A stretch of 64,000 nt of DNA from Octopus vulgaris (taxonomy: Eukaryota): assembly GCA_951406725.2 (NCBI GenBank), contig OX597824.1, positions 74,462,001-74,526,000 of the forward strand, in the 5' to 3' direction. This document shows positions 16,571-38,857 of the stretch, piece after piece (the first letter of the stretch is position 1; the number at the start of each line of letters is the position of its first letter). A program made the translations under genes and the position numbers. The notes under the pieces were generated by a model. It saw only the letters and a program-made list of their open reading frames with translations, was not told where the DNA came from and did no database searches.

Positions 16571-16670
16571 AACCTGAAGATTGACTATAATTTTAAATCA
16601 AATTTATTTCAATTGAATTTAAACTTAATTGTAATTCGAATTTAATTGTAGCCATGAAACGTACGTAGTT
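16571..16670 (+). ncRNA. Type-I hammerhead ribozyme motif (Penelope-associated type, long stem II)
   Basis: aac|CTGAAGA|T-tgactataatt...aattgtagcca-T|GAAAC|GTAC|GTA|gtt: intact core, palindromic stem III, 3-bp stem I. Confidence 0.7.
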
Positions 16671-16957
16671 TTTTTAATTAATATATTATATATTGATCAT
16701 TCATTTTTAAACGTTTTGAGATCTAGTTATTAGTTATATGTTTTATAAAAATATATATTATTTGTTATTTATGTATTGGTTTATGTCTATCAATGTTTGA
16801 GTTGCATAATAGTGGTTTTATCTCTAATTTATATTTTATATATTTATACTGTGAAATTTGATTTAATACTAAATTGAATTTTTCCCTGTAAGTTTGGAGT
16901 TATACTCTCTAATATTATTATTATTATATATATGAATATATATATATATATATATGT

Positions 16958-17277
16958 AAAATTATAATTTAGGGTATCTAAGAGATACCACCACACTTGA
17001 AATAGCAGCCAAAATTTGACTCTAAAACCACATTAAAAATCCATTAATTTTTTTGCTAGTTTATTTTGTCTTTTTGTCTTCTCTCCTGGTGCTGTATGAA
17101 CTTTTAATATGGTTTTAGAGTCAAATTTTGGCTGCTATTTCAAGCGTGGTGGTATCTCTTAGATACCCTAAATTATAATTTTTAAAATAATTATTACCTT
17201 TGAAGGTTTTTATTCCCATGCTTGCCACTTGATAAGTTCATATCTAAATAACAATCTTATCTTTACTTATATAAATT
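16958..17277. repeat. Fold-back module between TA tracts (arms of about 81 bp); probable Penelope-like terminal repeat relic
   Basis: 16958-17038 is the reverse complement of 17102-17182; flanked by (TA)n. Confidence 0.7.
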
Positions 17278-17604
17278 TATATATATATATACACACACAC
17301 ATATATATATACATATGTAACCCTACCAATGCTGGTACCATGTAGAAAGCATCCAGTCAACAGTCCACACTGGAAATTGGTTGGTATTTGGAAAGGTACC
17401 AAACTGTAAAAAACCATACCAAAATTGACCTCACTTGTGCTGGTGCCACATAAAAAGCACTCAGTCCACTCTGTAAGGTAGTTGGTATTAGGAAGGGCAT
17501 CCAGCCGTAAAAACCATGTTAAAACAGACACAGAAGTCTGGTGCAATCTTCTGCCTAGCCAGCTCCTGTCAAACCATCCAAACCATGTCAGCATGGAAAG
17601 CAAG

Positions 17605-18807
17605 AAACACAGAGGTTTACAATATTATCCACCAGAACATACCGCAATTAAAACAAGACCCCAGAATGAAACAAGCATTCGAAATACACAAAATAATCAA
17701 AAGTAAAAGACAATAAAAGTCCTGCAAAAAATTCCTTACGAGTGCTAAATTACCTTCCACAATTCCTACACCAACAGTCAAAAAATATAGCTGCCCCAAT
17801 TGCGGGACCTGCATCAACCTTACTGAAGACGCAGCATACAAATTCAAATCAGGATTGACTTTTAGCATAAAAAAATCACTTTACATGTTCTTCAAGGAAC
17901 TTAATATACGCTATCAAATGTCAAGGATGTAATGAAGATTACATAGGTCAAACGAAGCTTAATCTAAGAAATAGACTGATCATTCACCAACAACAAATAT
18001 AAGACCCCAGTACTAGACAGATTCCACTGAGTGGTCACATAGACATATGTGCAAAAAATAAGTCCCCTAAATTTAAGGTCTTCCCACTCTACCTATGTTC
18101 AGCGAATACCACAGATGAAGCACAGATAAACAAAGAAAATACGTTCATACAAAAGTACAAAACTATAACAGAATACATATACAAATAACTATTCACACAC
18201 AAAATTCATTCTGCCACTTATCATGAGGAAGCTACATAGCTAACAACCTAAATTGTAGCCTTTGGACAACATACAAATGACTCCAATTCACTCTCTCACC
18301 AGGCAGATTAAATTTGGAGTGCTTTGGTTTTAACTAAATATGTTCACTCAACCGTGTCGGCCTTCTTTTTAGGTGCTTATATACTGTTATATAACACTAA
18401 CACACACAGACATAGCAGGAAACGTATAAAAAGTTATAAATTTAATCATATGTTCATTCTCTACAAATACTTGACAGAAAACATTCAGGGTATTGATTGT
18501 TTCGAATTGTTCAGTCAACTGCGTCAGCCTTAACTTACAACGCAAAACATTATCCCTAGACGGACGTAGCAGGGAACCTACAAAAATTTCTAAAACCAGT
18601 CATGTGACTATCCTCTACCAATCAAATCTTATTCAAAACATATACTAATTTGAACCTATTGTGAGGATGATTTGGTTGTTGACTGAGGATAGAAATCTTC
18701 GAATGACCTGTCCTTGTTTTCTTGTATCGTCTATCTGGATGTTTTGTTGTCCCATTTTTTATCACCTAGTTGTCCGGATGTTTTGCGTTCTTGTCCCATT
18801 TTGTATT

Positions 18808-18810
<3 letters not shown>
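17605..18810 (+). pseudogene. Penelope-like element 3' fragment: GIY-YIG endonuclease (Neptune-like) plus 3' UTR
   Basis: Translation from about 17880: FTCSSRNLIYAIKCQGCNEDYIGQTKLNLRNRLIIHQQQI*...LSGH; upstream Cys cluster SCPNCGTC; ends at (TA)n. Confidence 0.85.
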
Positions 18811-18871
<61 letters not shown>

Positions 18872-18934
18872 GGATAAGATCGTTATTTAAATATCTAACT
18901 TATCAAATGGCCAGCATGGGAATACCTTTGAGGG

Positions 18935-19012
<78 letters not shown>

Positions 19013-19017
19013 CACAC

Positions 19018-19068
<51 letters not shown>

Positions 19069-19879
19069 TATACATACACACATATATACATATAACAATG
19101 ATGTTAATGATATATGTATATGCACTCATACACATATATAGTTATGTATATATGTGCGTGTGTGTGTTTATACATACATACATACATACATACACACACC
19201 TTATTTAAGCAATATTGATAATTTTCCTCTTTTACCGAGATATGAAAGCTATCGCACTCTCTTCTACGAAAGAACATGTCTACTGTTAAATGTGTAATTT
19301 TCCTGATGTCAAAATGTAACCAAAATAGTTTTAATAATTACACATAGTGGATGACCTGTTGACACAAAACAAAAAGAAAAAAAAGATTCATATAATTACC
19401 CCCTATTGCAAATAATTAGGCTGTAATTATTAACTTTAACGAGTTTCAGGCAGTATTTTCTGATCTCATTCCCAGAACTGGAAATATTCAAAAGTTAGGA
19501 TGATATTTCGTTTCTTTTATTTACTTCTGTGTTTATTGTTGTTGATTGCTGTTGTTGATATCGTTGCTGTCCATGTTGTTGTTGTTGTTGTTGTAGCTGT
19601 TGTTGTTGCTGTTCCTCTTTTATCTGCCCATACTCTCATCAGCCTTTCCTTTATCTTTCATCTTGTATCTTTTACTGGTTGCAGTCATTGGATTGCAGCC
19701 ATACTCAGGCATCACCTTGAAGGGTTTTAGCCAAATTCATCAACTCTTTGTTAAGCTTACTACCCATTCTCTCAGTCTCTAATGCCAAACCACTATGTTA
19801 CAAGGACATAAACAAACCAACACTGGCTGTCAAGTGGTGTTGGGCACAAACACAAATACACCCACATACACACGCAATC

Positions 19880-20292
19880 TTTTGTTCTTTTATTCTTTTA
19901 TTTGTTGCAGTCATTTGACTGCAGCCATGCTGGAGCACCATCTTTTGATCAAATAAATTGACCCCAGGACTTATTCTTTGTAAACCTAGTACTTATTCTA
20001 TCGGACTCTTTTGATGAACCGCTAAGTTATGGAGATATAAACACACCAACATCTGTTGTCACGTGATGGTGGGGGACAAATACAGATACAAAAACATATA
20101 CATGTGTGTGCATATAAATATGTATATAAGATGGGCTTCTTTCAGTTTCCATCTACCAAATCCACTCACTAGGTTTTGGTTGGCCTGCAGCTATAGTGGA
20201 AGACACTTGCCCAAGGGGCAATTCAGTGGGACTGAACCCAGAACCATGTGGTTCGGAAGCAAGCTTCTTACCACACGGCCACATCTGCACCT
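19880..20292 (-). mobile_element. SINE family B copy
   Basis: Homologous to 6165-6619. Confidence 0.8.
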
Positions 20293-20631
20293 ATATATAT
20301 ATATATATCAAAGCATCAAAGATCCTTCCAGAACCATAGTCACATAAGGTCAGTTGTCTGGATTCTGTGATATATATACTCTCACTCTGGATGGGATTAC
20401 TCATTTTTGCTGGTTAAGTGGACTGCTGCAATGTAAAATAAAATGTCTTGCACAAGAACACAATGCATTGCCCAGTCCAGGAACTGAAACCACAATCTTA
20501 CGATCATGTGTGCAACACCCTAATCACTTAGCCACATACCTCCAAGATATATATACATACATACATACGACGATGATGATGATGATGATGACATACATAT
20601 ATATATATATACATACATACATACATATATA

Positions 20632-21928
20632 TCTCTTATTATAAAAGGCAGATTTTATCTGCCTCCCTTTGTAAGTTATAGAAATCTACAATATAGGATT
20701 TCTTCAATTACAATTTACCTAGCATTTTTAAGAGTAGAATGCATCGGGTCATGCCAGGTCCAGTTTTTAAAATTTAAACTCCAATTAAGCAAAATTTACA
20801 GAAAACTCACATTCTGGTGTGTATGTCAAATGCTCTTCTTAATGTGGTTTACACCACATGCAAACGCACACACACACAAAGGGAACGAACTGTTTCACTG
20901 ACGCTATCACCCTTCTCCTCCTTTGTCTTTGCAAGTTTGCAGCTATTAAAGTGAAAACAGTGAATCCGACAGTGATAAAGAAAACGAATTGGTACCTGAA
21001 TGGAGTGAAAATTTAAAAACTGTTTCTTTCGGTGATTTTTCTGAAGAAACTGGACCAAGCCACAGACTTTCCCAGAAGAGTAAAGCCTTAAACTATTTCT
21101 ATTTACTTTTTCGAATGAGCCTATTTGAAATCATTACGGCAGAAACAAACCGTTACGCTAAACGTAAACAAAACGAAAGAAAGGATAGTTTGTTATTTCC
21201 CACAACCTTAAATGAAATTAAGGCCTATTTTGCCATAAATATTATTATGGGTATCAGAAAGTTACCCAGAATAACAAATTATATCGTAAAATTTTGTTGT
21301 ATACCCAATTGAATATTAGCTAATAACCCATTTTCTATAGCGATGTTTGAACAAAATTTTAATAATTTTATATATTGTTGAATTTACCTGTATCTACCTG
21401 CAATTAGAGTCACTTTGTGACAAAAATTATAGTATAGAATTGGTTGAGGACATTTCATTAAATTATCTTCCAAAAATCACATTAATATATTGATAAATAA
21501 AAAGTTATTGTTGTTTAATGAAACCAGACTAAATTTATGATTACGTTAGAAAATAATTGAAACACATAAGGGGTGTATTTTGGTCAGAAATATAGTAACG
21601 AAAGGGTTAAGAAAAACCAAACCAGGTATCTTATAGTCGTGAGTCATATCGAGCCCTTCTGGGTATTAGCGCGCGTCTATGATGAGTCTACGATTTAAAA
21701 AAATTTACCATCATATTTTTCCATTTTAATGCATTTTTTTCGCTATTATATAAGGGAAGTAACTCTCTAAAAATATCTACGATGTGTCAACGATTTAAAA
21801 AGAAATTTACCTTAATTTTTTTTCCATTTTTAATGCATTTTTTTCCTATTTTTTGGCTATAACTCTCTAAAAATGCTTATATAGTTATTTCCCTTACAAA
21901 CCCGAGCAACGCCGGGCGATACTGCTAG
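20632..21928 (+). mobile_element. Non-autonomous Helitron (1.3 kb) containing a piggyBac fragment
   Basis: A|TC start; hairpin plus CTAG|T end identical to the other copies; 21615-21928 homologous to 33659-33975. Confidence 0.8.
20989..21312 (+). pseudogene. piggyBac transposase fragment (DDE_Tnp_1_7-like N-terminal part)
   Basis: LNYFYLLF...LFEIITAETNRYA...PTTLNEIKAYFAINIIMGIRKLPRITNY; piggyBac right end GTAACGAAAGGG|TTAA at 21595-21610. Confidence 0.85.
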
Positions 21929-21991
21929 TATATATATATATTAATATATATATATATATATCAAAATAAGCAACAAGGATATCCAGAGGTA

Positions 21992-22080
21992 ATGCAGTAC
22001 GATCGTTTCATGTGACTCCATTTAATTGAACAATGCAAATATTATATCAATTTAAAATGTAGAGCAATCTTCAGCTGCAT
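21992..22080 (-). ncRNA. Type-I hammerhead ribozyme motif
   Basis: Minus strand: ATGCAG|CTGAAGA|T...long AU hairpin...T|GAAAC|GATC|GTA|CTGCAT, with a perfect 6-bp stem I. Confidence 0.8.
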
Positions 22081-22256
22081 AAAAATATACAATTTAGCTA
22101 AATTTGAAGGATTCATTTGTGAAAAAATCTCAGTTACAACTATGATATTGTTGATGAAACATGTTCTTTGTCTATCTACTTATCCTCTTTGTGATTTTGG
22201 ATAATAAGAAAACTATACAAATGAATCCTTCGAATTTAACTAAATTCTATATTTTT

Positions 22257-22345
22257 ATGCAGCTGAAGATTGTTCTACATTTTAAATTGATGTAATATTT
22301 GCATTGTTCAATTAAATGGAGTCGCATGAAACGATCGTAATGCAT
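22257..22345 (+). ncRNA. Type-I hammerhead ribozyme motif (second arm)
   Basis: ATGCAG|CTGAAGA|T...T|GAAAC|GATC|GTA|ATGCAT, with one stem-I mismatch. Confidence 0.72.
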
Positions 22346-22509
22346 TACCTCTGGATATCCTTGTTGCTTATTTTGATTATAATCACCCCATTTTGAATTA
22401 TATGGATAATACCATACTAAATTCTGGTGCCTTTAACTTAAGTACCATATTCAACTGAATCTATATATATATGGGTGGTGGGGTTGAGTGCCCTTCTTTC
22501 ATTTATTCA

Positions 22510-22544
<35 letters not shown>

Positions 22545-22553
22545 AGATATATA

Positions 22554-23720
22554 CAGGGTGTGGTGAATATATTGTCAACTAAATTATGCAACAGTGAAAA
22601 TAACTCTGACATCTCACTTTGACAGATATATTTACCAAAATTACATAAAAATATCTTGAAATACTTAAGAGTAAATTTATTCAATAGAAACGTCATTGGC
22701 TTCAAAAACAGCCTCTAGACGACTTTGTAATCTTCTGCAACTCTTCTGGATGGTCTCCTTGTTTAAGTTGGTGAATGCTGCCATAATCCTTGCCTTCAGT
22801 TCATCTTTAGTGTTACAAGGAGTTTTGTCGGTCTCTCGCACAACTGCCCCACATATAATAATCAAGGGGGTTGCAGTGTGCCAGATGTTAGGGGTAATGT
22901 GGTTGCAGAAATTGTCTGACAGCCATGACTGGGTTTCCCTGCTTGTGTGGCATGGAGAAGTCTTGTTGCCAGAAATAGGGTCTTCCAGCAGCCACCCTCT
23001 TGACCCAGGGCAGCACTACTTCCTCCAGGCACTTGATGTAGGCTTCCATGCTGAGCCTGAGGCCATGTGGGAAGATGAATGAAGGCATAACGTTACCATC
23101 ACTAGTGATCACTTCCATGATGTTGACTGGATGTTTGATTTTTATCACTCTCGATACATGTCCTCAACTGCACTGTCCACAGATTGACACCCAAACACTG
23201 AGGTGTTCATATTGGAGTGCATCCAGTGTTAATGCCAAGCAGTACAGCATGTTGTTTCCAAATTTCTGGCAGAATGAAGGCGGTGAGCTGGCAGAAACGT
23301 TATCTCCTTGAGAACTATGTTAAGGGTAAACATATCTGTAAGGCGGTGAGCTGGCAGAAACGTTAGCACGCCGGGCAAAATGCTTAGTGATATTTTGTCT
23401 GCCGCTACGTTCTAAGTTAAAATTCCACCGAGGCCGACTTTGCCTTTCATCCTTTCAGGGTCGATAAATTAAGTACCAGTTATGCACCGGGGTCGATGTA
23501 ATCAACTTAACCCCTTTGTTTGTCCTTGTTTGTCCCCTCTGTGTTTAGCCCTTTGTGGGCAATAAAGAAATAAGAATGAATTGTGTCATGGTGCTGTTTT
23601 TCTCACAGACGGTGCCTGACTGCCCCTACTATACTGTGTAGTTGACACAATCAAAAACTCAAAATGCGCATATGCAAAATTAAAAATATAAAATGGTGAC
23701 AATTTACCCATCACACCCTG
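22554..23720 (-). mobile_element. Decayed Tc1/mariner-superfamily element (maT/DD37D-like) with an inserted SINE (23279-23572)
   Basis: TA|CAGGGTGTG(G/A)TG TIRs; ITSDG..MP.FIF..GL...EAYIKCLEEVVLPW, WQQD and KTPCNTKDELKARI; SINE TSD agaatgaa. Confidence 0.85.
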
Positions 23721-23964
23721 TATAAAAGTAATGTTTATCGCCACATCAATATGGCTGTTCAATGGTACTACCATTTTAATCCCAGGCAGATCCTCTGCCA
23801 GCTGGTTAATAGTGCAACCTGCACCTTGAAAGCAAGGGAGCAAACACCTGATCAAATTTAATATACATTCCACAGGTTCCCTTCGCAATTAGAGCTTAGA
23901 AATGACCTATGCAGCAGTTCTCATCCTTACACATCACATGACCAAACCAGCACAGTCTGTGTGT

Positions 23965-24310
23965 GTGTGTGTAAAGAGTAAAGACCCCCTCGGTCATGAA
24001 TAACCATGCGATTGCACCTAGAAAGTTTCCTTTCAAGGTACAAGTCTGGGCAAATTTGTTTATGGAAGACCAGCAGTCGCCCATGCATACCAGCCTCCCC
24101 TTTCCATGCCACCGATGTTATCCAAGGGAAAGGCCAATACAGTTTGGCATCAGTGACATCACAACTCATATCTGCAGCTGTGTGAACTGGAGCAACATGA
24201 AATAAAATCTCTTGCTCAAGACCACAACACACAACCCAGTCTAGGAATCAAACTCACTATCTCAAGATTGTGAGCCTGGTGCTCTAACCACTGGATCATG
24301 TGCCTTCAAA
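23965..24310 (-). mobile_element. tRNA/CORE-like SINE with a distinct tail
   Basis: Head and CORE-like part resemble 9620-9762; different 3' half ending GGGGGTCTTTAC. Confidence 0.7.
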
Positions 24311-24397
24311 GAATTCAGATTCTACCAAGACTTGAGCTTAGATTGCTGGATTCATATGGATTCAGAGTCCAGAGTACTAACCATAACACCATAGAAG

Positions 24398-24436
<39 letters not shown>

Positions 24437-24437
<1 letters not shown>

Positions 24438-25332
24438 GTGGTCTGATCAATAAATATCCGGACTGTTGCCATAGTAATGAAACTAAATGACGCAGAGTGA
24501 AGTTGCTTAGCGCAGGTTGACCTTGAACTCTGCTGTGCATGCACATTAAGTTTTAACATTCTAGCTTACTTCTGAAGTTTACAGCACTGCTTGGAAGGAA
24601 GGTGTGTAGCATGTGATCATTGCATTGACCATGATAGAGAAAGTTGAGCTGAGAATCTGCATCAAATGTTGCCAAAAGCTTGGCAATACCTTCCCAGAGG
24701 CCTATGTAAAGTTTTCAAAAATTTTCCATCGTTCTTGTCACAATCAAGGAGATCTTGTGCAACTGAAACCCGAGTGTCGTTTTGGTCAGCTAAAAGCAGC
24801 TTTGGTACAAACTTAGCAGACACGCTTCTCATACCTAAATTGTTAGTGATAATGGACTGAACTGAACCAAAACTAATCTGCACATCCTCTGATAACACAC
24901 AGATGGTGATTCGATGATTTCTCCTCAAAGCTGCACGCACATCTGCAATGTTTTTCTCAGTTCTGCTGGTTATGGGTCTTCCAGAATGTTCGTCAATATC
25001 GACATTTTTTTGGCCATCTTAGAAACGTCTGAACCACTTGTTCACTTGTGTGCAGTTCATACACTCCCTTCCATACACTTTCTGCAACTTTGCACTGGAC
25101 TCTGAGCAGGTATCATCATGACGACTTTCTCTGTCATGTTCAAAGCAACGATCACACACTACACACGTTCCTTCCAAACACTGCTGTAAACAGCAGAAGT
25201 GAGCTAGGACGTTAAAACTTAGTGCACATGCACAGCAGAGTCCACGGTCAATCTCTGCCAAGTGGCTTTACTCTGTGTGTTTTAGCTTCATTACTATGGC
25301 AACAGTCCACATACTTATTGATCAAACTAACA
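24437..25332. mobile_element. Mariner-derived element with two 5' ends in inverted orientation
   Basis: 24437 to about 24640 and the reverse complement of about 25120-25332 both carry TIR, 5'UTR and transposase start; the minus strand encodes RITI..LSEDVQISFGSVQSII...LGMRSVSAKFVPKLL. Confidence 0.85.
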
Positions 25333-25415
<83 letters not shown>

Positions 25416-27379
25416 ACTAAAAAATATATATGGTTCAAAATGGTACAAAGACAAAACAAAAATACAAAAGGCAGAGACAGGCGAAGGAAGAATAAACAAG
25501 GTGTATTAGTTTGGTGCTGAGGAAAAATAGTAGTCTTTGATGTTTTGAGCCTATGCTCTTCTAAGGAAAGGAATGTGGATAGAAAACCGATGGAAAGAGG
25601 AAAAAAAAACAGAGAGCAAGAAAGAAAATGTGTCTGGATTAACAGTTGCAGATGTTGATCTGATCAGAAGGTAGAAACCTGTTGGAGATGAGAGTGACAG
25701 GGGAGACAACAGTAACATGGCTAGAGTGTCTGTGCGTAAGCATGTGCATGTGAGAATAATGTGTGCCTGTGTATGGGCAATCGCATGTGTATGTGTATGT
25801 TTGTGAGTAAAGAAGTACATGCATGTGTGTGGAGTGACATGTATTAATGTATAAAGAGAAAGAACAACTGACAAAGAAGCGTACAATGAAATTTCATACG
25901 TAAAAGGAATGGAAGATCATCATCATCATCGAATCTGATAATTCAGATACGTGGTAGCAGGGTGTGCTAGAAATAACAGCCAAATCTTGCAGGTGAGATA
26001 TGTTGAATGCACTCGGAAAAAATCTATGGAAAAAAATTATTTCACTCCAAGATACGAACGGGTCTTTTTCTTTTACGAAATATTTATCATATCTTTAAAG
26101 TCATTTTCACTTTATCAAAGAGAAGAAGAAAAGCAATAAGCAAATGGAAGTGAGAATCAGAAGTAAAAGTTAAAAAGTGTACAATACCCCCAAAAGATGT
26201 TTGTTCACGCAGTAGGTTCCAGAGAGAATGAAAGCAGAGAAGTGGAATAGAATGACCAGAAGTGGAAGCAGAATCTGAGATGCAATGAGATTAAATGGAT
26301 AAAGATGGAGTGAGAGTGAGAGAGTGAGAGAAAAAGAGAATAAGTTGAAAGAATGAGAAAGAGGGAGAGATGACAGAACGAGAGAGGAAGAAAAAAGAAT
26401 GAAAAGGGAGACAACTAGTGAGTGGGGGGAAGTAAGAGGGGTAATGGGGTGGGGGGGAGATATGAGTGTTTGTGTGTGGTGTAAGAGGGGTGCTTATGCA
26501 CATGGTATTTGTTTCAGAAGATATCATGTAAAAGTTCAGGATATGACCCACTAACCTATGGTATCATTTGGAAGCTAAAAGAATGTGAAATGCATGGTGA
26601 CCAGTGATGCATAATAACGTCCGATATCCTGGTTGATACTGTAATGTCTTATTATATGTTTCCTATCTTCATTTAAAAAAAGATGTTATGTGCCATTTCC
26701 TTCTCGAGCCACGCCTGACTCATAAGGACCGGTTTCCCCGGTTTCCTTGGCGTATATGTTCCCCACCTGGACAGGACAATGGTCCCTCGCAGGTGAGCTG
26801 CTAGATGCAGGAGGAAAGAGTGAGAGAAAATTGTGGTGAAAGAGTCAGCAGAAGTTCGCCATTACCTTCTGCCGGAGCTGTGTGGAGCTTAGGTGTTTCG
26901 CTCATAAACACACACATTGCCGGGTCTGAGATTCGAACCCACGATCCCTCAACCGCAAGTCCGCTGCTCTAATCACTAGGCTATGTGCCTCCATGTGGAG
27001 GTTAAGTGCCATTGGCCATTTTGAGTCTGAAGGGTCGTCCATACAGCTTAGCACTTTATAGGTGTGAAACAAATGGTCATTCTCTGACCAGCAATAACAA
27101 CTACTATGAATTAAGTTCTCCCTGAAATGTGAATACGAACGGAATAAAACAGGTTTTATGTAAATCAGACAAGTGGTTGCTGAGATATTAAGAGTTTCTG
27201 GGGTATAAATGCCCCCCAAACAGTGCATAATGGGAAAATATTCCAAAGGTAACTATCCTGAAAAGGAAGAAATTCTTACCTTTTGATTAGATACAGTCCC
27301 TTGATAGCAAAAAAATATGATTTGATTTTTACAGTAAATGTTTCTATTTTCGCTTTTGTTAAACACAATATTTTAATCA

Positions 27380-27796: not shown

Positions 27797-29329
27797 TGTG
27801 AAATAAGAAAACAACATGGAAACCTTGTGACAGTATGGCTTGATTACAGCAAAATAATTTGACTCCATTCCCATCTCATGACTACTGAAGTCAGTACATT
27901 TGTTAAAAGTGCTTGCTGCCTTAGCGACTGCCCTTTAAAAGGGTCATGTTTATGAATCTGGTCCACATATTCTCACTCCTGTAATCGAAAATGGCACTAT
28001 TGTCTCTGATATTGATTTCAAATTTTGGTACAAGGCCAGCAATTTCAGGGGAAGGTGTAAGTCAATTTCATCAACTCCAGTGTTCAACGGGTACTTATTT
28101 CACCAACCCCGAAAGGATGAAAGGCAAAGCTGACCTTTGTGGAATTTGAACTCAGGTCATTAAAATGGATGAAATGCCACTAAGCATTTTACCTGGTGTA
28201 CCAACTACTTTGCCAGCTTGCCACCTTGCTTTTGTCTCTGATATTATATTTCAGTGGGAAAATTCCATGGCAACAGGCAATTCTATGATTCTGTGTATTT
28301 TGTCCCTAAATTCAGTATCATTCCTTTTGCAGAAATCTTCTGGTTATGTCTTAGAGTCTCCAACTACTAATAGCCATAAACACCAATACTGGCTTTAAAT
28401 TTAGGCACAAGGCCAGCAATTGTGTGAAAGGGTACGAGTCAATTACATTGTCCCCACTGCTCAACTGGAACTTATTTTATTGACCCCAAAAGGATGAGAG
28501 GCCAAAGTCAACTTCAGTGGTATTTGAACTCAGAAAGTAAAGTAGGAAGAAATCCTGCTAAGCTCATTTTCCAATGCAATAATGATTCCACCAGCTTGTC
28601 ACCTTCAAGAGAGAAGCATTAATATTACCTGTAATTTCATCATCATCATTGTTTAATATCCACCTTCCATGCTGATATGGGTAGGATGGTTCGACAGGAG
28701 CCGACCAGGCAGAAGCCTGCACCAGACTTCTGTGATTGTTTTTGCTGGATTTTTTAGAGCTGGATGCCCTTCCTAAAATCAAATCTAAAGATCTATGTCT
28801 GAAATATTTACAAATCTGAAAAACAGCTGAACAACATTTTTCTCTGACATAGGAATGGAATTTGGCTAAAACAAATGGTCATATTTAATAGTTGAACATA
28901 GGAAACATTTTCCCCAACCCTAAAATCTTTATATCATAGGTCTCTCCCAAAACTAGTGCTCCAATTATCTAGATATTTATGGAAATATATCATGCAAGTA
29001 CAGTACTTAACGAGTACTATACTTGTTATATAGCATGCCTAGTGCCGCTGGACTGGCTCCTGTGCAGGTGGCATGTAAAAAGCACCATTTGGATGTGGCC
29101 GTTGCCAGTACCACCAAACTGGCCCTTGTGCCGGTGGCACGTAAAAGCACCCACTACACTCTTGGAGTGGTTGGCGTTAGGAAGGGCATCCAGCTGTAGA
29201 AACTCTGCCAGATCAGATTGGAGTCTGGTTCGCCAGACCTCAGTCAAATCGTCCAACCCTTGCTAGCATGGAAAGCAGACGTTAAATGATGATGATGATG
29301 ATGATGATGATTAGCAATTTTGTTGAGTA

Positions 29330-29800
29330 CAGACTTAAAGAGGCAGCAAGACAATAGCTCAAGAGAATGCTCCCACAATGCATTTGAGTACCACTATTAA
29401 TAACAACACTTGGGATACTTGACTGCTCTACAGAGGAAATGTTCCATAGACAATTAAACCCATAATATTGTGACATTAGCTGCAAATCTCTCTAGAAAAC
29501 GTGATAATGACAGACTTTGTCTCGAGAGAAAAGGAGGAAAAAGCTTAAGTTTAGTACAGGCACCCTTCAAGTGCCATATGATATCATTCAGGCAACATCT
29601 ACAAAGCAAAAGCAGTGAAAATAACAATATCATTCAAGTACTCAAAGATGAAGTAAATAACATCCCACAAACCGGTAACGAACTCTTCAAGAAATAGCCA
29701 CTTATTGATGATCTCAGATATGAGCCTAAAAGTGCAGGGCTCATATAGAATACTAAAGAACTAGAACAGTAACACTCTGCATACCAACAAGCACATTATA
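29330..29800 (+). pseudogene. Old non-LTR retrotransposon fragment (R4/Dong-like, post-RT region)
   Basis: DRLCLERKGGKSL resembles the RLYLPRKEGGRGL motif. Confidence 0.45.
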
Positions 29801-30236
29801 CAAATATAGACTGTAAGTGGAACAATAAATATATGCAAGACTTTTCTCAAATTCAAAATATGAATTTGTCTTAGTCATCTACATTCCAATAAGCTTTGTG
29901 TCTTTGTAATAAACCGATTTCTTCATTATAAGAAGACTTCAAATAATCATGAATGGAAGAGAACTTTCACACATGTATACATTCATGTATATACATACAT
30001 TTATGCATACATATATACTCTGGGGTCTTGAATAATTTGCGCCCTACCACCCATTAATTTTTAACCCGAAGTGTTAAGAAAAATATTTATCCACAATATA
30101 TAATAGCCAAAGTTCATGCAGGTGAACTTTCAACATTTTAGGGCATTGATAACCTTCAACCTTAAGAAAATCAATCATTTTGAGACACAACACACCTGCT
30201 TCAGAAGAAATAGAAAACAAGGAAATTGCTGTCAGA

Positions 30237-30652
30237 AGGCGGTGAGCTAGCAGAAACGTTAGCACACCGGGCGAAATGCTTAGTGGTATTTCGTCTGCCA
30301 CTACGTTCTGAGTTCAAATTCCGCTGAGGTCGACTTTGCCTTTCATCCTTTCGGGGTCGATTAAATAAGTACCAGTTACGCTCTGGGGTCAATATAATTG
30401 ACTTAATCCATTTGTCTGTCCTTGTTTGTCCCCTCTGTGTTTGGCCCCATGTGGGTAGTAAAGAAATAGGTATTTCGTCTGCCACTACGTTCTGAGTTCA
30501 AATTCCGCCGAGGTTGACTTTGCCTTTCATCCTTTTGGGGTCGATTAAATAAGTACCAGTTATGCCCTGGGGTCGATATAATCAACTTAATCTGTTTGTC
30601 TGTCCTTGTTTGTCCCCTCTGTGTGCAGCCCCTTGTGAGCAGTAAAGAAATA
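30237..30652 (+). mobile_element. SINE family A dimer
   Basis: Full unit followed by a headless unit, joined at AAAGAAATA-GGTATTTCG (about 30469). Confidence 0.9.
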
Positions 30653-31036
30653 AGAAAGCATGTTTCACAACCAGCCAGAGTTTACAAGAACTTGAGGCTG
30701 GACAACTGCCCCAGTTTGTAACATTTGCATGACTCTACTGCTACTCTACACTGTAGTCTACAAACTTTCATTTTCAATTTCTCTATGGTTTCTCTACTAA
30801 TCACCAACACAAATTCTACGCAAACTAAGAACTTCCATGATGAACTGTTTATCCTTAACAGGATGAGCTTTTTATGGAATAAGGATCTAACAACATCAAC
30901 ATGACTCAAGTAATTTCTCTTTGAACTTTTTTCATAACATCATGGCAGACGTATGGAAATTATTCTATAGAAAAAAGCAAGCATTTGCTATTGTGGTGAA
31001 TAAATAAATGCAAAGAGGAGGAGGATTCTGAATTAA

Positions 31037-31479
31037 CCCTTTCATTACCAACCTGACTGAAACCGGCTCTGGCTTTGTAATATAAATGTCTTATTTATAT
31101 AAGTTCTGAATTAAAATCTTCCTCCAGACCTTACTCACAATTCATGTTCCTAACACTAGCTTAACCCTTTTGTTACCAACCTGGTTGAAACTGGCTCTGG
31201 CTCTTTAGTATAAATGTCTTGTTTTCATAAGTTTTGAATTCAAATCTGCCACCAAATCTTAGTCACAATTTATGTTCCTAACACTAGGTTAATGATAACC
31301 ATGTTATTTTACTAAATTCTTCATTATATTTAAAATAATTGGAAGAAACACAGAGCATCTCAAAATAAATACAGTAACAAAAGGGTTAATGATAAGGTTA
31401 TTTTACTAAATTCTTTGTTATATTTAAAGTAATTGAAAGAAACACAGAGTATCTCAAAATAAGCACAGTAACAAAAGGG
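31037..31479. mobile_element. piggyBac MITE with a second copy (31165-31385) inserted in its internal TTAA
   Basis: Four TTAA-abutting CCCTTT/AAAGGG ends; removing the inner copy restores the sequence seen at 4594-4816. Confidence 0.9.
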
Positions 31480-31669
31480 TTAAAGTGAATGAAAGGAAAA
31501 ACTCATTGGGATGCTAAAAGGAAATGCCATGTCCCGGACATTTGTTTTCCTTGAAATTTAGTCTGTGTCAAAAACTCTTGTCAACTATTTGGTTCTGTTT
31601 TTAAAGCAGCCAAACGCTGCTACGAAAAATATCTGAAAGGTGAACTTAACAGTACTGAAAAAAATCCAA

Positions 31670-31795
31670 AGCAGCATTTCAGAGGTGCTGGAGGAGGTCG
31701 TAAAACAAAAGCACCAGGCGTGAGAGATGCCTTGTTTGAATGCTTTGTGGATGTTAGAACATCGTTTCATATGCGATTATCACAAACTCTTGTAA
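31670..31795 (+). pseudogene. pogo/CENP-B-like HTH transposase fragment
   Basis: FRGAGGGRKTKAPGVRDALFECFVDVR. Confidence 0.45.
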
Positions 31796-32073
31796 TTAAT
31801 TCTTCTGATTCTTCATGTGTACGGATAATTTTTTGTTCTTCAAATATTTAAAATTTGAATATTTTAAAAAATATTAAACTTTTTCTTATTTATTACGTTT
31901 TATATTGTTTTGTTGTAATTAAGAGACCATACATTAAAAAATGGGAAAGACTTCCTCCTGTCCCTAACCCCTGCCACTCATTTTCTTGCAATTTTTTTTT
32001 TTTTTGCTAAAAACACCCGTTTTCGGATATGACTTCCTCCTGTCCCTCCACTCATTTTCTTGCAATTTTTTTT

Positions 32074-32245
32074 TTTTTTCTAAAAACACCCGTTTTCGGA
32101 TATGGAGATTCCGGAGAATTGCCAAAAATTGGCATTTTGAAATTAGGGCGGTTGGGGTGGGGTAATTTCGAAATGCCAATTTTTGCCAATTTCTTTGCAG
32201 ATTCGTATTCTCCATAGCCGAAAACGGGCGTTTGTGTAGAAAAAA
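32074..32245. repeat. Palindromic element with a G-rich loop, preceded by a tandem duplication of about 80 bp (31949-32103)
   Basis: Arms 32074-32145 and 32163-32245 are complementary; loop gggcggttggggtgggg. Confidence 0.8.
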
Positions 32246-32534
32246 CTTAAATAGCGCAGGAGTGGCTGTTTGGTAAGTAGCTTGCTAACCAACCACATGG
32301 TTCCGGGTTCAGTCCCACTGCGTGGCATCTTGGGCAAGTGTCTTCTGCTATAGCCCCGGGTCGACCAATGCCTTGTCCAGCATGGCCGCAGTCAAATGAC
32401 TGAAACAAGTAAAAAGAGTAAAAAAAAAGAGTAAATAAAAAAAAGCGGTGTATTTTGGTGGTGTTCAACAGGAAGATTTGCCAAAAATGTAATCAAAAAT
32501 ACTTATATTTCCTAAATTATTGTGAAAAATGTAC

Positions 32535-32920
32535 GTGGCTGTGTGGTAAGTAGCTTGCTTCAAAACCACATGGTTCCGGGTTCAGTCCCACTGCGTAGCA
32601 CCTTGGGCAAGTATCTCCTACTATAGTCTCAGGCCGACCAAAGCCTTGTGAGTGGAATTGGTAGACGGAAACTGAAAGAAGCCCGTCGTATATATGTATA
32701 TACTTGTGTATCTGTGTTTGTCCCCCCCCCCCCCCAACATCGCTTGACAACCGATGCTGGAGTGTTCACGTCCCCGTAACTTAGCGGTTCGGCAAAACAG
32801 ACCGATAGAATAAGTACTAGGCTTACAAAGAATAAGTCCTGGGGTTCGATTTGCTCGACTAAAGGCGGTGCTCCAGCACGGCCGCAGTCAAAATGACTGA
32901 AACAAGTGAAAGAGTAAGAG
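32535..32920 (+). mobile_element. SINE family B copy (an internally deleted copy lies at 32273-32430)
   Basis: Homologous to the other family B copies. Confidence 0.85.
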
Positions 32921-33356
32921 ATGTACGAATAATTTTTGGTCTGACAGTATATATGTCTGTCTGCACGCGCGCATACACACGCTTTAAGTTCATAAGTCTG
33001 GACAGTCGAGCCGTCCAGTCAGCCAACCGAGCAGCCGGTCAGTTAAGGAAGGAGGAAGAAATACAGTCTACACAATACACTGTCTATATAATTAATTCAT
33101 TGATCCACGTCGTTGCTGTCCCACTCGGGGACATATTCTGCTGGAAGGAGACAGCGCCAGCAATAAGACTGCTTTCGCTAATACGGCTATGACAACAATA
33201 GCGGCAGCAGCCGTAAAGCCAAAACGCGGGAGGCTTCTTTTGCGGTCGGTCGATATGCTAGAAATAGCAGTCATACCGCCCTCTAACGCAGTGGTTTTCA
33301 ACCACTTTTTGCCTACAGACCCCTTTGTTTCCTTTTTCTCTGCTGGACTTTCTATG

Positions 33357-33606
33357 GGTACTACTTAAGAAGAGTGGTCCTGTGCGCGCACTCGTGTACT
33401 CGCGCATCCGCGCTAGCTAGTCGTGACCAGTCGATCCTTACTGTGTGTTTTTGTGTTTTATTTACTTTGTTTAAAAAAAATTATTTATTCTGTGTTTTAT
33501 TTACTTTGCTAGGTAGTCGTTGTAGGATCGACTAGTCACGACTAGCTAGCGCGAATGCGCGAGTACGAGAGTGAGCGCACCGGGACCACTCTTCTTAAGT
33601 AGTACC
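33357..33606. mobile_element. Merlin-like (or Mutator-like) MITE, 250 bp, with CpG-rich TIRs of about 85 bp
   Basis: TIR begins GGTACTACTTAAGAAGAGTGGTCC; perfect 9-bp TSD ctttctatg at 33348-33356 and 33607-33615. Confidence 0.85.
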
Positions 33607-33658
33607 CTTTCTATGTACATATATAAGAAAAACATCCTACTGTATTTTTATAATTAAA

Positions 33659-34052
33659 CTAGCAGTATCGCCCGGCGTTGCTCGGGTTTGTAAGGGAAAT
33701 AACTATATAAGCATTTTTAGAGAGTTATAGCCAAAAAATAGCAAAAAAATGCATTAAAAATGGAAAAAAATTATGGTAAATTTTTTTAAATCGTTGACTC
33801 ATCGTAGACATTTTTAGAGAGTTAATTCCCTTATATAATAGCGAAAAAATGCATTAAAATGGAAAAAATTATGGTAAATTATTTTAAAAATCGTAGACTC
33901 ATCGTAGACGCGCGCTAATACCCAGAAGGGCTCGATATGAATCACGACTATAAGATACCCGGTTTTGGTTAAACTGCACCGCAAAATGTGGGAGTAGTTA
34001 GGAATCTAAATCGTAGGAGACGGACACACAACTTCACTTTTATATATAAAGA
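33659..34052 (-). mobile_element. Non-autonomous Helitron
   Basis: A|TC...hairpin...CTAG|T on the minus strand; homologous to 5324-5830. Confidence 0.88.
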
Positions 34053-34228
34053 TATTATTAGAAATTGTATAAATAAAAATTAAAATTCTTTGTGTGTGAA
34101 GTATTATAAATTTATTGCACATAAATCTTAACAAGAAAATCTTAAATGTACCCTGGTTGTGAACCACTGCTAACCATACTTATCTAAGAGAGAGAGAGAG
34201 TGAGACAGAGGGGAAGAGAGAGCAAATG

Positions 34229-34614
34229 TCTCTCTATATATAAAGCTGAAGTTGTCTGTGTATGGCAGGTTTGGTAGCCTTCAACAAACACTATCTCCTC
34301 CGAGACCCTGCGGCGCAAGTTGACCAAAATTAAGAGTATGATAGAAGAAGGCTTGCTCTTCCTTCCGTAGAAGAAAAAAATTCAAATCGGACCATGTTAA
34401 CACCAAATGTAAATATTACATCAAAAAGGTGCTTTTTTTCTATGAAAATCCCTATTTTTTACGATTTTTCGACTGCTGTGTCGCCACTTTTCGGTGTATC
34501 TCAACCAGAAAAGTGTTCACTTAAAGAAAATAACGACCTACATAATGCAAAATGTTTACTTTTCAAAAATTCCAATTCTAAACAAACCCGAGCAACGCCG
34601 GGCGATACTGCTAG
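34229..34614 (+). mobile_element. Non-autonomous Helitron with a different internal sequence
   Basis: TC-(TA)-AAAG start; identical 32-bp hairpin-CTAG end. Confidence 0.8.
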
Positions 34615-34719
34615 TATAGGAAACACAGGAGTACATATACCGGCCAGATAGATCTCACTCAAACTACGTTTGGACATCTACAAAGGAAACAGAAAAAGAC
34701 AATGTGCATCACAAGATTA

Positions 34720-35231
34720 CCGTAAATCCTCGAGTATAGTCCGCCCTTGAGTATAATACGCAGGTTTTTTTTAGGGGTATGTACCTCTGAAAAACCTAAA
34801 CCTTGTGTATAATACGCACCCCTCCTCTAACTTGAGTCAAGGAGGTCTATATAACGTCCTTGGTTTGTAAAAATGTATACGGCAACGTCCTTTATCATTA
34901 TTGTATATATAACATAATGCAAACGTGTAGCTTTTTTGTGAATTTTGTTTGCAGAAAATAAAGAAATAACAGTAATAACGTTTAATAAATGTTGCTTACT
35001 GCAAGTTATGGATGATTCTTTTGTGACTTCATTGCTTTCAGGCTTAGCTTAAGGTATTTTCACGCCAGACATCACAAAATGTGTCTGAATAAACATTGCC
35101 GGACAACAAATAGAGACTCGGACATTGCTTAGAAAATAATTTTCATTTTTAATCTCGTATATAGTACGCACTAGGGATTTTGACCTATAAATTTTGGGAA
35201 AAACATGCGGATTATACTCGAGGATTTACGG
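34720..35231. mobile_element. Tc2/pogo-like MITE (512 bp)
   Basis: TA|CCGTAAATCCTCGAGTATA.TCCGC ... GCGGATTATACTCGAGGATTTACGG|TA. Confidence 0.85.
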
Positions 35232-35484
35232 TATATCAAAGTGGTCGCTCGGTTTGCTAAAAATAGCTGCCAAATAAATCTCCACTTAATGATTAAAAAA
35301 TAAAGGAAGGGTATATGAACCCACGAGGGAAGTTGCTTTGTAGTCACTCGACCAACTAGAAGAGATAGCCAATTATCACTCGAATCCTTACCGTCTTAAA
35401 GAATAGATAAATAAAAAGGATGTGTTGGATAATATCATCCTGGGTTTCCTGCAAATGAGATGGTCGCGAATGGAATGCTTTCAT

Positions 35485-35743
35485 CAGCTGTCCCCAACAT
35501 TTTTTGTACCACGGACCGGTTTCATTCCAGACGTTTTCTCCACGGACCAGGGGATAATGTGCTTAACACAACACAATAACATGTATAATATATAATTTGA
35601 TTATTACATATACAATACATATATAATGCAAAAACTTGTATATTCTGATAGTCATTAAAATATAGAAATGAAATGGCAAAAATTTATTCTCTCCGCGCGG
35701 CCCGGTACCAAATGATTCATGGACCGGTGGCTTGGGTCGCCTG
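35485..35743. mobile_element. hAT MITE resembling MER1/Charlie3
   Basis: CAGCTGTCCCCAACATTTTTTGTACCACGGACCGGTTTCA start; GGCCCGGTACC..GGACCGGT..TTGGGTCGCCTG end; degenerate TSD gctttcat / tctttgat. Confidence 0.75.
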
Positions 35744-36150
35744 TCTTTGATCAAGGGTTGACCTAAGAATAAAGGTTAACATCGAGGTTGACCTAAGAAT
35801 AAAGGTTGACATACAACAAACAGTATCAACAGGATCGTGGATTTGTCTTTCATAGATGACGCCATTCTCTTGACCATTCCTTGACACACTCCTCCATCGG
35901 GATGTCATTTCCTCTCTACTTCTCTTTCTCTTTCTCTCTGTCGTTTCCGCTCCGTTCTTCTCTCTTTTTGTCTGTCTGTCTGTCTGTCACTCTCTCTCTC
36001 ACTCGAAGTCTTTTTCAGTACATTCTGATCTGTGTCATTGAAAACATTCCCGTTAGTTCCGTTACTTGATTGCTGGGGACTGAGTAAGAACTTTGTAGGA
36101 TAGGTAGGTAACACTTGAAGCATTGATGAAAATATATGAATGCATCTTCA

Positions 36151-36212
<62 letters not shown>

Positions 36213-36557
36213 GCACACACATACAAACACATGTATTAAAATAAATGAACACACACAAGCAGGAGCACGCGCACCTAGAGAGGCCTCTAAATCGGGCATA
36301 GGCAACAATTTTTGGAAAGTGGGTCGCATGAGACTTGGCTCATCATTAATCGGTCCGCAACTTCTAAAAAGTCTTAAATTTTCGTCCGGCGGGACGCACT
36401 GTGCTCCTAACTGTACTAACGACTGCTCTAAGTGATCGATCACCTTGCTAGAAATACCAACCAAACCACTCTCAAAATGTACTTGGGATCTTTTCCGTTT
36501 AGCTTTCACTTTTCAATTCCTTTATTTTTTGATTATTTACATTATTTACATTCAGTT

Positions 36558-36600
36558 CCACAACGTTTCGGCTGATATACCCTCCAGCCTTCTTCGGGTG
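36558..36600 (-). ncRNA. Minimal hammerhead-like motif (mutated core) upstream of and antisense to the Penelope RT
   Basis: Minus strand: cac|CCGAAGA|A|GGCTG..CAGCC|GAAAC|GTT|gtg. Confidence 0.6.
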
Positions 36601-36661
36601 TCTTGGGTTCTCATCCCTAAGGTATTTTTCGATATTATTATTATTATTATCATTATCATCA

Positions 36662-36718
<57 letters not shown>

Positions 36719-36829
36719 TCACTGCTTGGAATCTTGGGGTTAATAGCCCACACTCTTAACCGCTATGCCATATATCGTTTTAAATCTAATATTTTTCTAT
36801 CCTTTGTTAATACCAGTTCCCATATGCTG

Positions 36830-38170
36830 CTCAAGGTGGAAAGTGAGACAGGTACTAGAAAAAGCAAAACCTCCTAAACCAAACATCACTAAGGAAGAAA
36901 AGTTCGCTATCAAAGGACTACAGAGTGACAATTCCATCATAATACTTCCAGCAGACAAGGGAAATGCTACAGTGGTGATGAACAAGTCTGACTACTCCGA
37001 AAAGTTGATAAGTCTTATAACTGATGGTAGCTACAGCAAAGTAAAGAAAGACCCTACTTTGAAAACAGAGAGGAAGTTGTCACAGATCTTGACCAAGAAC
37101 AAGGATCACTTTACACCAATGAAGTACAGACAACTGACTCAACACCATAGTAAACTGTCATGTACGGTTTTCCTAAGATTCACAAGGATGGTATTCCATT
37201 AAGACCTATAGTGAGCTGTAGAGGTTCAGCATGTCATTCGCTGAGCTGCTTCCTTGTGGATATAATCAGTCCATTAGCAGGAAAGTCAACATCGTATGTG
37301 AAGAATTCCACCCACTTCACAGAATTAATCAAGGATACCCCCATTGAATCCAACCAGATGGTGAGCCCAGATGTGATAAGCCTGTTCACCAAAATCCCAA
37401 CTGGTGAAGCACTATTGGTGATACAAGAAAAACTAGTGACAGAAACTCATCTAAAAAAAGAACGCACTAGTATACCAATAAGAAACTTGATGGAAATGTT
37501 GACCTTCTGTGTAGAAACTACCTACTTCAGTATGGACACTGATATATATCGACAAGAGGAGTGTTTAGCTATGGGCTCACCATTATCACCGGTAATAGCT
37601 GATATATACATGGAATACTTTGAGAATTTGACTTTAGGATCAACACTATGGCTACGATATGTTGACACCTTTTTACTCTGGCCCCACCAGGAAGATGTCC
37701 AAGTGCTGTTAGATCATGTGTACTCAATAAGCCATCCATACAGTTCACAATGGAAAAGAAAAAAGACAATCAGCTGGCATTCCTGGACGTATTAATAACA
37801 CACACCAAGTATGGATTTAGGGCATCCGTATACCACAAGCTGACCTTTACCTGATGATACCTCAACTTCAATTCCCACCAACCATACAGTGTAAAGAGAG
37901 GGATTGCTCAGTGCCTAAAACATCGTGCAAAGAATGTAAGTAGCGATTGTGACACACACCATGAAGAAATGATCAAGCTCAATAACGATCTGTTAAGCAA
38001 CAACTACCCCAGAAGTATACTATCCACTCCAATTATGAAGAAGAGAGAGGATGAGGCCAATAAACCGTCCACAGTCTGACGCCACTTCGCAATTATCTCC
38101 TTCGAGTAAAACCACAAATAGAAGAGAATATGACCAAATACTGTGTGTACTCCATCCCATGCGGTTATTT
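36830..38170 (+). pseudogene. Penelope-like retroelement reverse transcriptase (Penelope/Poseidon-like), frameshifted and 5'-truncated
   Basis: PNITKEE..AI..L...IIILPADKGNATVVM, YGFPKIHKDGIPLRPIVS, DVISLFT, AMGSPLSPVIADIYME, WLRYVD, QFTME...LAFLDVLI, YLNFNSH, then CVYSIPC (start of GIY-YIG). Confidence 0.92.
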
Positions 38171-38274
38171 TTCAAAAGTCTTCATTTTGGTGCGCTAAAT
38201 TACAGGAAAATAATACTGTAGAAAATAATTTACTGCAGTGGCTTTTGCTGATTAGAGAATGTATTAATTTAAAT

Positions 38275-38857
38275 TTAAATTTAAAATTAGGGTGAGAAAT
38301 TGGATATTAATTTAATTAAATTAACATCAATTTAACACCAGTGGTCTAGCATATAAAATCTAAAGGTTCAGTAAAGTGTATTATACAAATGAGAGGGATG
38401 ACCACTATGTGGACAACCCTTATGCTAGAAGTAGATCCGCTTGTATCTAGGTAAAACTAGATACAAGTTTGCCTCGAGCAGACATCTCCGTATATAGTTC
38501 TGCAAATTATATTTGTATAGACGATCACACTGAGGATCTATGGACAAATTGCATAAGTAAAAATTATGTAATATGTTAATAGTGAAACATGTATGTGAAT
38601 AATCTATATTTTGTTACTTTTCATTTGTCTTGCTCGCTTATGTTCTGGTGTTTGCTAAATTTTTCTTGAGAGCATTTCTTAGTGGTAAGACCACAGCAAA
38701 TCTACTTCTAGCATAAGGGTTGTCCACATAGTGGTCATCCCTCTCATTTGTATATAATACGCTTTACTGAACCTTCAGATTTTATATGCTAGACTACTGG
38801 TGTTAAATTGATGTTAATTAAATTAATATCCAATTTCTCACCCTCATTTTAAATTTA
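38275..38857. repeat. Fold-back module (arms of about 160 bp) with a hammerhead motif in the spacer; probable Penelope-like terminal repeat relic
   Basis: About 38275-38436 is the near reverse complement of about 38700-38857; followed by (TA)n. Confidence 0.88.
38525..38598 (+). ncRNA. Type-I hammerhead ribozyme motif
   Basis: TCACA|CTGAGGA|T-ctat..attgcataa(loop)ttatgtaat..atag-T|GAAAC|AT|GTA|TGTGA, with a perfect 5-bp stem I and ACATGT palindrome. Confidence 0.8.

Follow-up and report, generated by a model that had tools for sequence, protein, structure and literature searches.

Candidate type-I hammerhead ribozymes with a long stem II in Hydra-clade Penelope-like elements and an ORF-less repeat unit of Octopus vulgaris

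Hammerhead ribozymes of Penelope-like elements (PLEs) were described, together with a dimer model, by Cervera and de la Peña in 2014 (PMC4209133), and those of the Hydra clade of PLEs are included in Craig et al. 2021 (PMC8557442). The minimal hammerheads of the former study lie in the terminal repeats (pLTRs) of the elements, have a palindrome made of 15.2-16.2 and loop III, and occur as opposite-strand pairs 100–700 bp apart; in the consensus, A9 is followed by a bulged base, and a stem II of 7–8 bp starts with G10.1-C11.1. Hydra-clade hammerheads are of type I, lie in pLTRs, have a palindromic stem III and begin stem II with U·U or an unbulged G-C; A17 occurs among them, and their elements have (TA)n targets and open reading frames (ORFs) with RWK, DKT and CxCX5C. 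We analyzed a 64,000-nt stretch of Octopus vulgaris DNA (contig OX597824.1, positions 74,462,001–74,526,000; hereafter the window), in which three repeat families, A, B and C, each carry a hammerhead motif. These motifs resemble the minimal PLE hammerheads in location, palindrome and opposite-strand pairing but not in the three consensus features, and they and their carriers resemble Hydra-clade PLEs in all the respects listed above. Unlike the Hydra-clade PLEs described, they have a stem II of 47–75 nt rather than 12–26 nt, a loop III of 2 or 4 nt, thousands of copies, an ORF-less derivative, and 3' untranslated regions (UTRs) of 1.3–2 kb, owing to which the elements reach about 4.6 kb instead of <3 kb. 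We consider it likely that they represent type-I hammerheads in the pLTRs of Hydra-clade PLEs (A and B) and in an ORF-less unit of about 535 nt (C), with a predicted cut after GUA; they would most likely cut as dimers, perhaps with the help of a protein.

A descriptor requiring the hammerhead core, a stem I of at least 3 pairs and a stem II of 8–150 nt was run on both strands of the 64-kb window and returned exactly three matches, at 16571–16670 (+), 21992–22080 (−) and 38525–38598 (+), the same loci and coordinates that an earlier note on this DNA had given. All three read CUGA(A/G)GA, U, an arm, U, GAAAC, a palindrome (GUAC, GAUC or AU) and GUA. The core positions C3-U4-G5-A6-N7-G8-A9, G12-A13-A14, A15.1-U16.1 and H17 are intact in each, stem III is palindromic, and the usual G10.1-C11.1 pair is replaced by U·U. 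Specifically, hammerhead A has a weak 3-bp stem I (16571–16573/16668–16670), the core at 16574–16580, a stem II of 75 nt including both U residues (16581–16655), GAAAC at 16656–16660, the loop GUAC and a predicted cut after 16667; the minus copy of hammerhead B has a 6-bp stem I, a 58-nt stem II, the loop GAUC and a predicted cut after 21998; and hammerhead C has a 5-bp stem I followed by a further helix past an internal loop, a 47-nt stem II, the 2-nt loop AU and a predicted cut after 38593. The earlier note had asked whether shuffled DNA might match equally often; with the strict descriptor there were 0 matches in 300 local dinucleotide shuffles of the window, and a looser descriptor gave a mean of 0.013 per shuffle. 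A check against Rfam, which the note had also proposed, reported no hammerhead at the window motifs: there was none among 150 of the 167 window matches listed, none at 21900–22450, and none in eight loci tested, two of them holding short-arm Hydra-type motifs. The three loci, described as unrelated, are so by local alignment, but each proved to be one copy of a repeat family, and A and B share one PLE clade.

The structure was supported by covariation rather than by stability. We assembled 266 pattern hits from the examined loci into 46 clusters, with no pairing imposed and probable chance matches kept; among the loci were 40 regions chosen to be diverse out of the first 100 matches listed for the two long-arm patterns. 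The covariation of stem I proposed from the window holds in this set, positions 1–3 being paired in 83, 89 and 72% of the clusters versus 38–42% with shuffled partners. Positions 10.2–10.5 of stem II were paired in 83, 83, 72 and 63% (36–41% with shuffled partners), with pairing falling to background at 10.6 (41% versus 37%) and returning at 10.8 (70% versus 40%). At 10.1/11.1 only 35% of the clusters were paired, the closures being U·U (16), G-C (11), A·C (6), A-U (3), G·A (3), G·U (2), C·A (2) and other (3), a mix biased by the two search patterns. Four-base loops III were exact palindromes in 22 of 33 cases, versus about 2 expected. The suggestion in the earlier note that these are PLE hammerheads of type I, whose palindromic stem III would suit dimers, is supported. 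In an alignment of 17 lineage B sequences, 91% of the cells were paired, versus at most 48% in all slid controls, and two-sided changes were present in 39 cells and in 9 of 23 pairs; the lineage A alignment, with 12 families, combines five G-C and seven U·U closures. Within families, core positions varied less than stem II (24 of 1,343 versus 278 of 6,560 pooled cells, from copies that are not independent), a weak sign of selection on the source elements.

Regions for the study of carrier elements were selected around paired pattern matches, and the loci examined are given L-numbers. In L152, L203, L204, L208 and L210, open frames, the longest of 984 aa, have long-arm hammerheads on either side, in the two pLTRs; L204, for example, has motifs at 2589 and 7239 around a 984-aa ORF, and this hammerhead-to-hammerhead distance of 4,650 bp exceeds the typical Hydra length of <3 kb. 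The flanked proteins have RW(K/A), DKT, a CxCX5C linker, a C-terminal GIY-YIG and CxxC/CxH, and a reading of the L203 and L205 proteins revealed no CCHH motif. RWK and DKT are present in L203, L205 (an RW-A variant), L248 (linked to B) and L155, and SDKT in L267, a reverse-transcriptase (RT) fragment located 5' of family A sequence. An initial assignment of these ORFs to Neptune was rejected because DKT, RWK and CxCX5C are diagnostic of the Hydra clade (Craig et al. 2021, PMC8557442). These diagnostics were found in ORFs flanked by long-arm hammerheads (L203 and L205) and in ORFs linked to A, to B or to another U·U family (L259, L279, L232, L248 and L155), the further U·U family in L155 flanking an RT-endonuclease remnant. 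Upstream of family A sequence in L259, L279 and L273, and in the same orientation, a CxCX5C/GIY-YIG end was reached after about 2 kb of AT-rich 3' UTR. For family B, 20 loci with an RT fragment abutting a B copy were examined: L232 and L233 contain a decayed full-length ORF with the B repeat 1.3–1.5 kb behind it, a B repeat abuts the ORF start in L237, B-like repeats lie behind the ORF in L240, L244 and L248, and in 8 of the 20 no B match was found within 9 kb. An endonuclease fragment near family B in L019/L201 was rejected as a partner, being a separate insertion. A profile of DKT-type relatives matched the A- and B-linked frames and gave no score for the DKG-type RT of the window, and the closest named protein relatives were from Argonauta. 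Judging from these sequences, we assign A and B to the terminal repeats of Hydra-clade Penelope-like retrotransposons. The window copy of family A (16301–16848, +) would be a 5'-truncated 3' end (pLTR) of such an element; the family has a common 3' end near 16848, with some copies extending to about 16955, followed by (TA)n. The copies in the window are truncated insertions and, as elements, likely dead.

Other Hydra-type families appear to be young. L203–L210 and L172–L181 have uninterrupted frames of 842–984 aa and pLTR hammerheads about 4.6 kb apart, with one G·U and one A·C closure of stem II among them. Immediately before C3, a pyrimidine-rich run ending in AG was seen at window 22248–22262 (B) and L204:2575–2588 (the L203 family). 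Such a run with AG resembles a splice acceptor that is reportedly present in Drosophila Penelope; as a candidate acceptor here it was rejected, since no joint was supported and the AG, present in B and the L203 family, is absent from A and C.

Family C consists of short non-coding units, with a period of about 535 nt, that join head to tail and carry a type-I hammerhead. Of 30 loci, the unit start is reached in 18, of which 10 show a tail-to-head junction, and few loci contain two same-sense motifs. In the window, its insertion has an inverted arm (38160–38441, −), which contains a tail-to-head junction, and a direct arm (38448–38876, +) made of the ORF-less, retrozyme-like unit with (TA)n at its end. 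Animal non-LTR retrozymes (PMC7229834) are likewise built of short head-to-tail units that lack an ORF and carry a type-I hammerhead, and they have been proposed to be non-autonomous PLE derivatives (PMC7229834; Li et al. 2026, bioRxiv 10.64898/2026.07.22.740005). In these two sources, however, retrozymes have units of 220–390 bp in tandem arrays, a short stem II and loop-loop contacts, whereas family C is dispersed, mostly contains less than two of its longer units, and has inverted arms and a 46-nt stem II arm. Family C likely borrows the enzymes of Hydra-clade PLEs. It interrupts a broken DKG-type (Penelope/Poseidon-like) PLE RT remnant (36747–38159, +), and the RT at 36747–37795 was rejected as its partner because no match was found in the other 89 loci; moreover, the family of this RT has a short classical motif, and the Hydra-type profile is not matched. 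The remnant's own motif, at 36562–36597 (−), is a classical short PLE minimal hammerhead with a bulged A, G10.1-C11.1, a 21-nt stem II and U4 changed to C, and thus contrasts with the long-arm motifs inside the same window. The same motif was the most frequent among the first short-arm genome matches listed.

The earlier note had also described a mirror of hammerhead B at 22257–22345 (+). The copy is present, but base 22340 is A rather than the C of nearly all other family B copies, so that the first stem I pair is broken and the copy failed the scan; judged by this change, it is likely inactive. Inverted arms are a described feature of PLEs (PMC4209133; PMC8557442), and in a Poseidon element two RT start sites that bound a "tail" have been measured (PMC11167929). 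In family B, most inverted arms begin 41 or 42 nt past the predicted cut site and the direct arms end at +119 to +152 (28 of 30 copies scorable). The window pair fits this arrangement, with an inverted arm (21955–22120, −) beginning 42 nt beyond the predicted cut site and adjoining (TA)n, and a direct arm (22118–22466, +) consisting of a Hydra-clade pLTR with (TA)n at its end. We therefore read the pair as one two-armed insertion, in which the mirror is the counterpart of the motif in the inverted arm. The minus and plus copies are mutually antisense and so cannot form a dimer on one transcript, and the mirror was rejected both as a dimer partner and as an independent example.

Patterns were scanned in the 2.8-Gb genome with reversed patterns as controls; the numbers are matches rather than copies, some matches were counted double, and families with T at N7 escape both long-arm patterns. 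The pattern CTGARGAT-N35-80-TGAAAC-N0-4-GTA gave 6,957 matches versus 121 for its reverse, the long-arm pattern with non-T at both closing positions gave 8,963 versus 1,424, and short-arm cores gave 56,301 versus 3,120. A GUC/GUU version of the U·U pattern also exceeded its control (1,471 versus 192), many of its matches being re-readings of GUA motifs; strict GUA specificity was therefore rejected, and GUA is dominant but not exclusive. Each window locus belongs to a family of 1,808–2,472 first-look candidates, 40 of which were scored per family. The copies stop at common 3' ends in (TA)n; their 5' ends are scattered, and inverted arms are frequent among them. Some long-arm motifs are arranged in tandem, with four 594-bp units (G-C closure, GUC) at L153:1775–3640, two 593-bp units at L157:2730–3407 and two 680-bp units with U·U at L154:2902–3673. 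A very short U·U motif with a 12-nt stem II and a 1-nt loop III was found at L159:3778–3840, L205:7104–7131 and elsewhere, often as two closely spaced inverted copies; a convincing stem I was not seen in it.

The earlier note had suggested that a long stem II closed by U·U, together with GUA, may be an under-described variant. Of these features, U·U and GUA turned out to be the most frequent states among Hydra-clade hammerheads. By our own tally of File S2 of Craig et al. 2021 (PMC8557442), stem II is closed by U·U in 14 of the 25 Hydra families, by G-C in 7, by G·U in 2 and by U·C in 1, the remaining family being ambiguous; A17 is present in 11 of the 25, and stem II spans 12–26 nt. For an independent comparison, 96 loci encoding relatives were taken from marine metagenomes and metagenome-assembled genomes, and 61 of them have motifs. 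Stem II begins with U·U in 22 of the 51 distinct sense motifs, A17 occurs in 32, and every span is within 10–31 nt (shuffles gave 0–2 motifs per pass, and the 51 include a few from neighbouring elements). In addition, a natural U10.1-U11.1 start of stem II was reported by Perreault et al. 2011 (PMC3088659), and a Hydra magnipapillata motif with U..U and GUA appears in Fig. S3 of Cervera and de la Peña 2014 (PMC4209133). The axolotl HHR_Amex2, a type-I hammerhead with U·U at the base of stem II, a 2-bp stem III and a tetraloop, cleaves 22% as a monomer in 1 h and better as a dimer (PMC7229834). In the present genome, by contrast, stem II spans 38–82 nt in a pattern-bounded sample, and the long arm is also found with G-C, G·U and A·C closures, so the closure and the arm are separable traits. 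U·U and GUA being traits of the clade, it is the long arm that sets the Hydra-type families of this genome apart, and arm length alone, two to four times that of published examples, looks undescribed. We found no description of a stem II of 40–80 nt in animal PLEs in the literature (Lünse et al. 2017 lay outside the comparison), and what has been called a "long helix II" in chrysoviruses measures 6 bp. The 2014 descriptor (PMC4209133) misses such motifs because it allows the core halves to be no more than about 26 nt apart. Partly comparable are PLE-X1_sMoe/sTam (plant PLE-X) and the Naiad "HHR_half_core" cases (PMC8557442), one of them an octopus Naiad, with core halves 35–55 nt apart at PLE termini; these belong to other clades, however, and are flagged there as deviating or incomplete, not as a class with a long stem II. 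Among the metagenomic loci, L398–L416 hold Hydra-type animal retrotransposon ORFs with hammerheads on contigs binned as bacterial genomes, which they likely entered as host DNA, and at L359:2400 a Hydra-type ORF is followed by a motif with U·U closure whose core is a U3-A8 variant (UUGAAAA).

We propose that two same-sense copies on one transcript, from the 5' and 3' pLTRs or from tandem units, would pair their palindromes into a 6–8-bp stem III that would not be stable within a single copy. Calculated energies for stem III are consistent with this, being +2.4 kcal/mol as a hairpin and −9.8, −10.0 and −4.6 kcal/mol as two-copy duplexes. Cleavage would then release a unit-length RNA that may be circularized and copied by target-primed reverse transcription, possibly with the element's protein. 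The U·U would be a closure of stem II tolerated throughout the clade, and the long arm an outgrowth, in the host lineage, past the 3–5 core-proximal pairs, with pairing kept and sequence and length free. The ends of genomic copies were examined around the predicted cut. In family B there is a small excess, 6 of 40 5' ends lying at −2 to +5 (three at 0/+1) versus nine in −40 to −7; when the query was placed further downstream, 4 of 39 ends fell at −2 to +2 and six at +11 to +18, both clusters being on short palindromes. In family A, 7 of 29 5' ends lie at +5 to +9, in a TA-like stretch. In family C, 3 of 27 lie at +5 to +7, two of these from one duplicated region, and among the copies in L477–L506 none of 27 junctions lies between −102 and +4 and 16 lie between +5 and +58. 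Contigs of presumed-RNA runs cover families B and C and show no ends; they were not used as evidence.

Several observations weigh against this proposal. Many genomic copies run through the predicted cut site (24 of 39 in B, 11 of 27 in C and 5 of 29 in A), so that templates would often be uncut or re-ligated, and in work on a Poseidon element it was mainly uncut RNA that served as substrate, cleavage requiring the protein (PMC11167929). In whole-motif folding, A and B were no better than shuffles (z-scores +0.67, +0.43 and +0.33), C alone standing out (−2.87), and the hammerhead fold lies 5.2 (A), 4.5 (B) and 0.4 (C) kcal/mol above the minimum-energy fold. In family A, stem I has just 2–3 bp. 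In lineage B, two of five whole-structure measures did not exceed letter shuffles (93/500 and 151/500), the distal hairpin has a two-sided change in just one of seven pairs, and RNAalifold mispaired the core; for the indel-rich lineage A alignment it returned no consensus structure. As regards the carriers, the Hydra-clade assignment is based on motifs and a profile, and the 30 family C loci gave no match to a Hydra-type ORF, leaving its partner ORF not found.

The alternative that survives best, although we regard it as unlikely, is that the long arm is a functional module, with either an internal loop 3–5 pairs from the core replacing loop II in the contact between stems I and II, or the arm binding the RT-endonuclease, thereby gating cleavage. 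The dip in pairing at 10.6 and recovery at 10.8 across the 46 clusters, an arm that stays paired while its sequence turns over, the presence of the long type wherever a sampled Hydra-type ORF of this genome was accompanied by a hammerhead, and the protein-assisted Poseidon hammerhead (PMC11167929) are all consistent with such a module. Some families (clusters 14 and 44), however, have uninterrupted proximal stems of 11–12 bp, arms in lineage A can be as short as 44 nt or as long as 77 nt, no common arm motif was seen, and marine relatives have arms of only 10–31 nt. Somewhat more doubtful still is the full form of this idea, in which Hydra-clade elements of the host lineage would have rebuilt stem II as a 40–80-nt docking or protein-binding arm, with cleavage gated by the RT-endonuclease or by a tertiary contact of the internal loop.

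It is less probable again that the motifs are kept for their fold, for example as an RT handle, with no appreciable cleavage in vivo. The many copies spanning the cut site and the weak stem I of family A are compatible with that explanation, as are the poor in vitro cleavage of PLE minimal hammerheads (PMC4209133) and the Poseidon data, in which insertion in vitro had no need of cleavage and no read ended at the cut site (PMC11167929). On the other hand, dozens of diverged clusters have kept the catalytic positions intact, and inside families these positions are less variable than stem II; three of 40 family B copies begin at 0/+1 of the cut, and a U·U hammerhead does cleave in axolotl (PMC7229834). 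Chance matches in AT-rich repetitive DNA, for which the A and B folding scores and the silence of Rfam might speak, are refuted as an explanation by the shuffles of the window, the reversed-pattern and partner-shuffle controls, the covariation in the 46 clusters and lineage B, and the presence of the motif in both pLTRs of intact elements, and are given a negligible probability.

The window also contains remnants of other elements. A hAT-like DNA transposase remnant at 1100–2944 (−) is weak (E 0.07), and a mariner-like HTH_48 remnant and a piggyBac-like DDE_Tnp_1_7 remnant were located at 12357–12818 (−) and 20950–21312 (+), respectively. A tRNA-like match at 24317–24398 (−), which scores 34.4 bits, above the Rfam gathering score, and is not called by ARAGORN, is likely the head of a short interspersed nuclear element.

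The long-arm matches above control, about 14,000, exceed the published descriptor, beside about 53,000 short-arm matches, indicating that standard searches undercount hammerheads in this genome, and the set links a hammerhead subtype to one PLE clade. If the arm were a functional module, these approximately 14,000 motifs in dozens of families would constitute a class missed by Rfam and beyond the reach of the standard descriptor, and the G-C, U·U, G·U and A·C closures would form a natural mutagenesis series of the 10.1-11.1 pair. The findings also suggest re-reading the Naiad "half-core" cases with a long-arm descriptor, and the intact elements, with frames of 842–984 aa and both pLTRs, may be used for testing what PLE ribozymes do.

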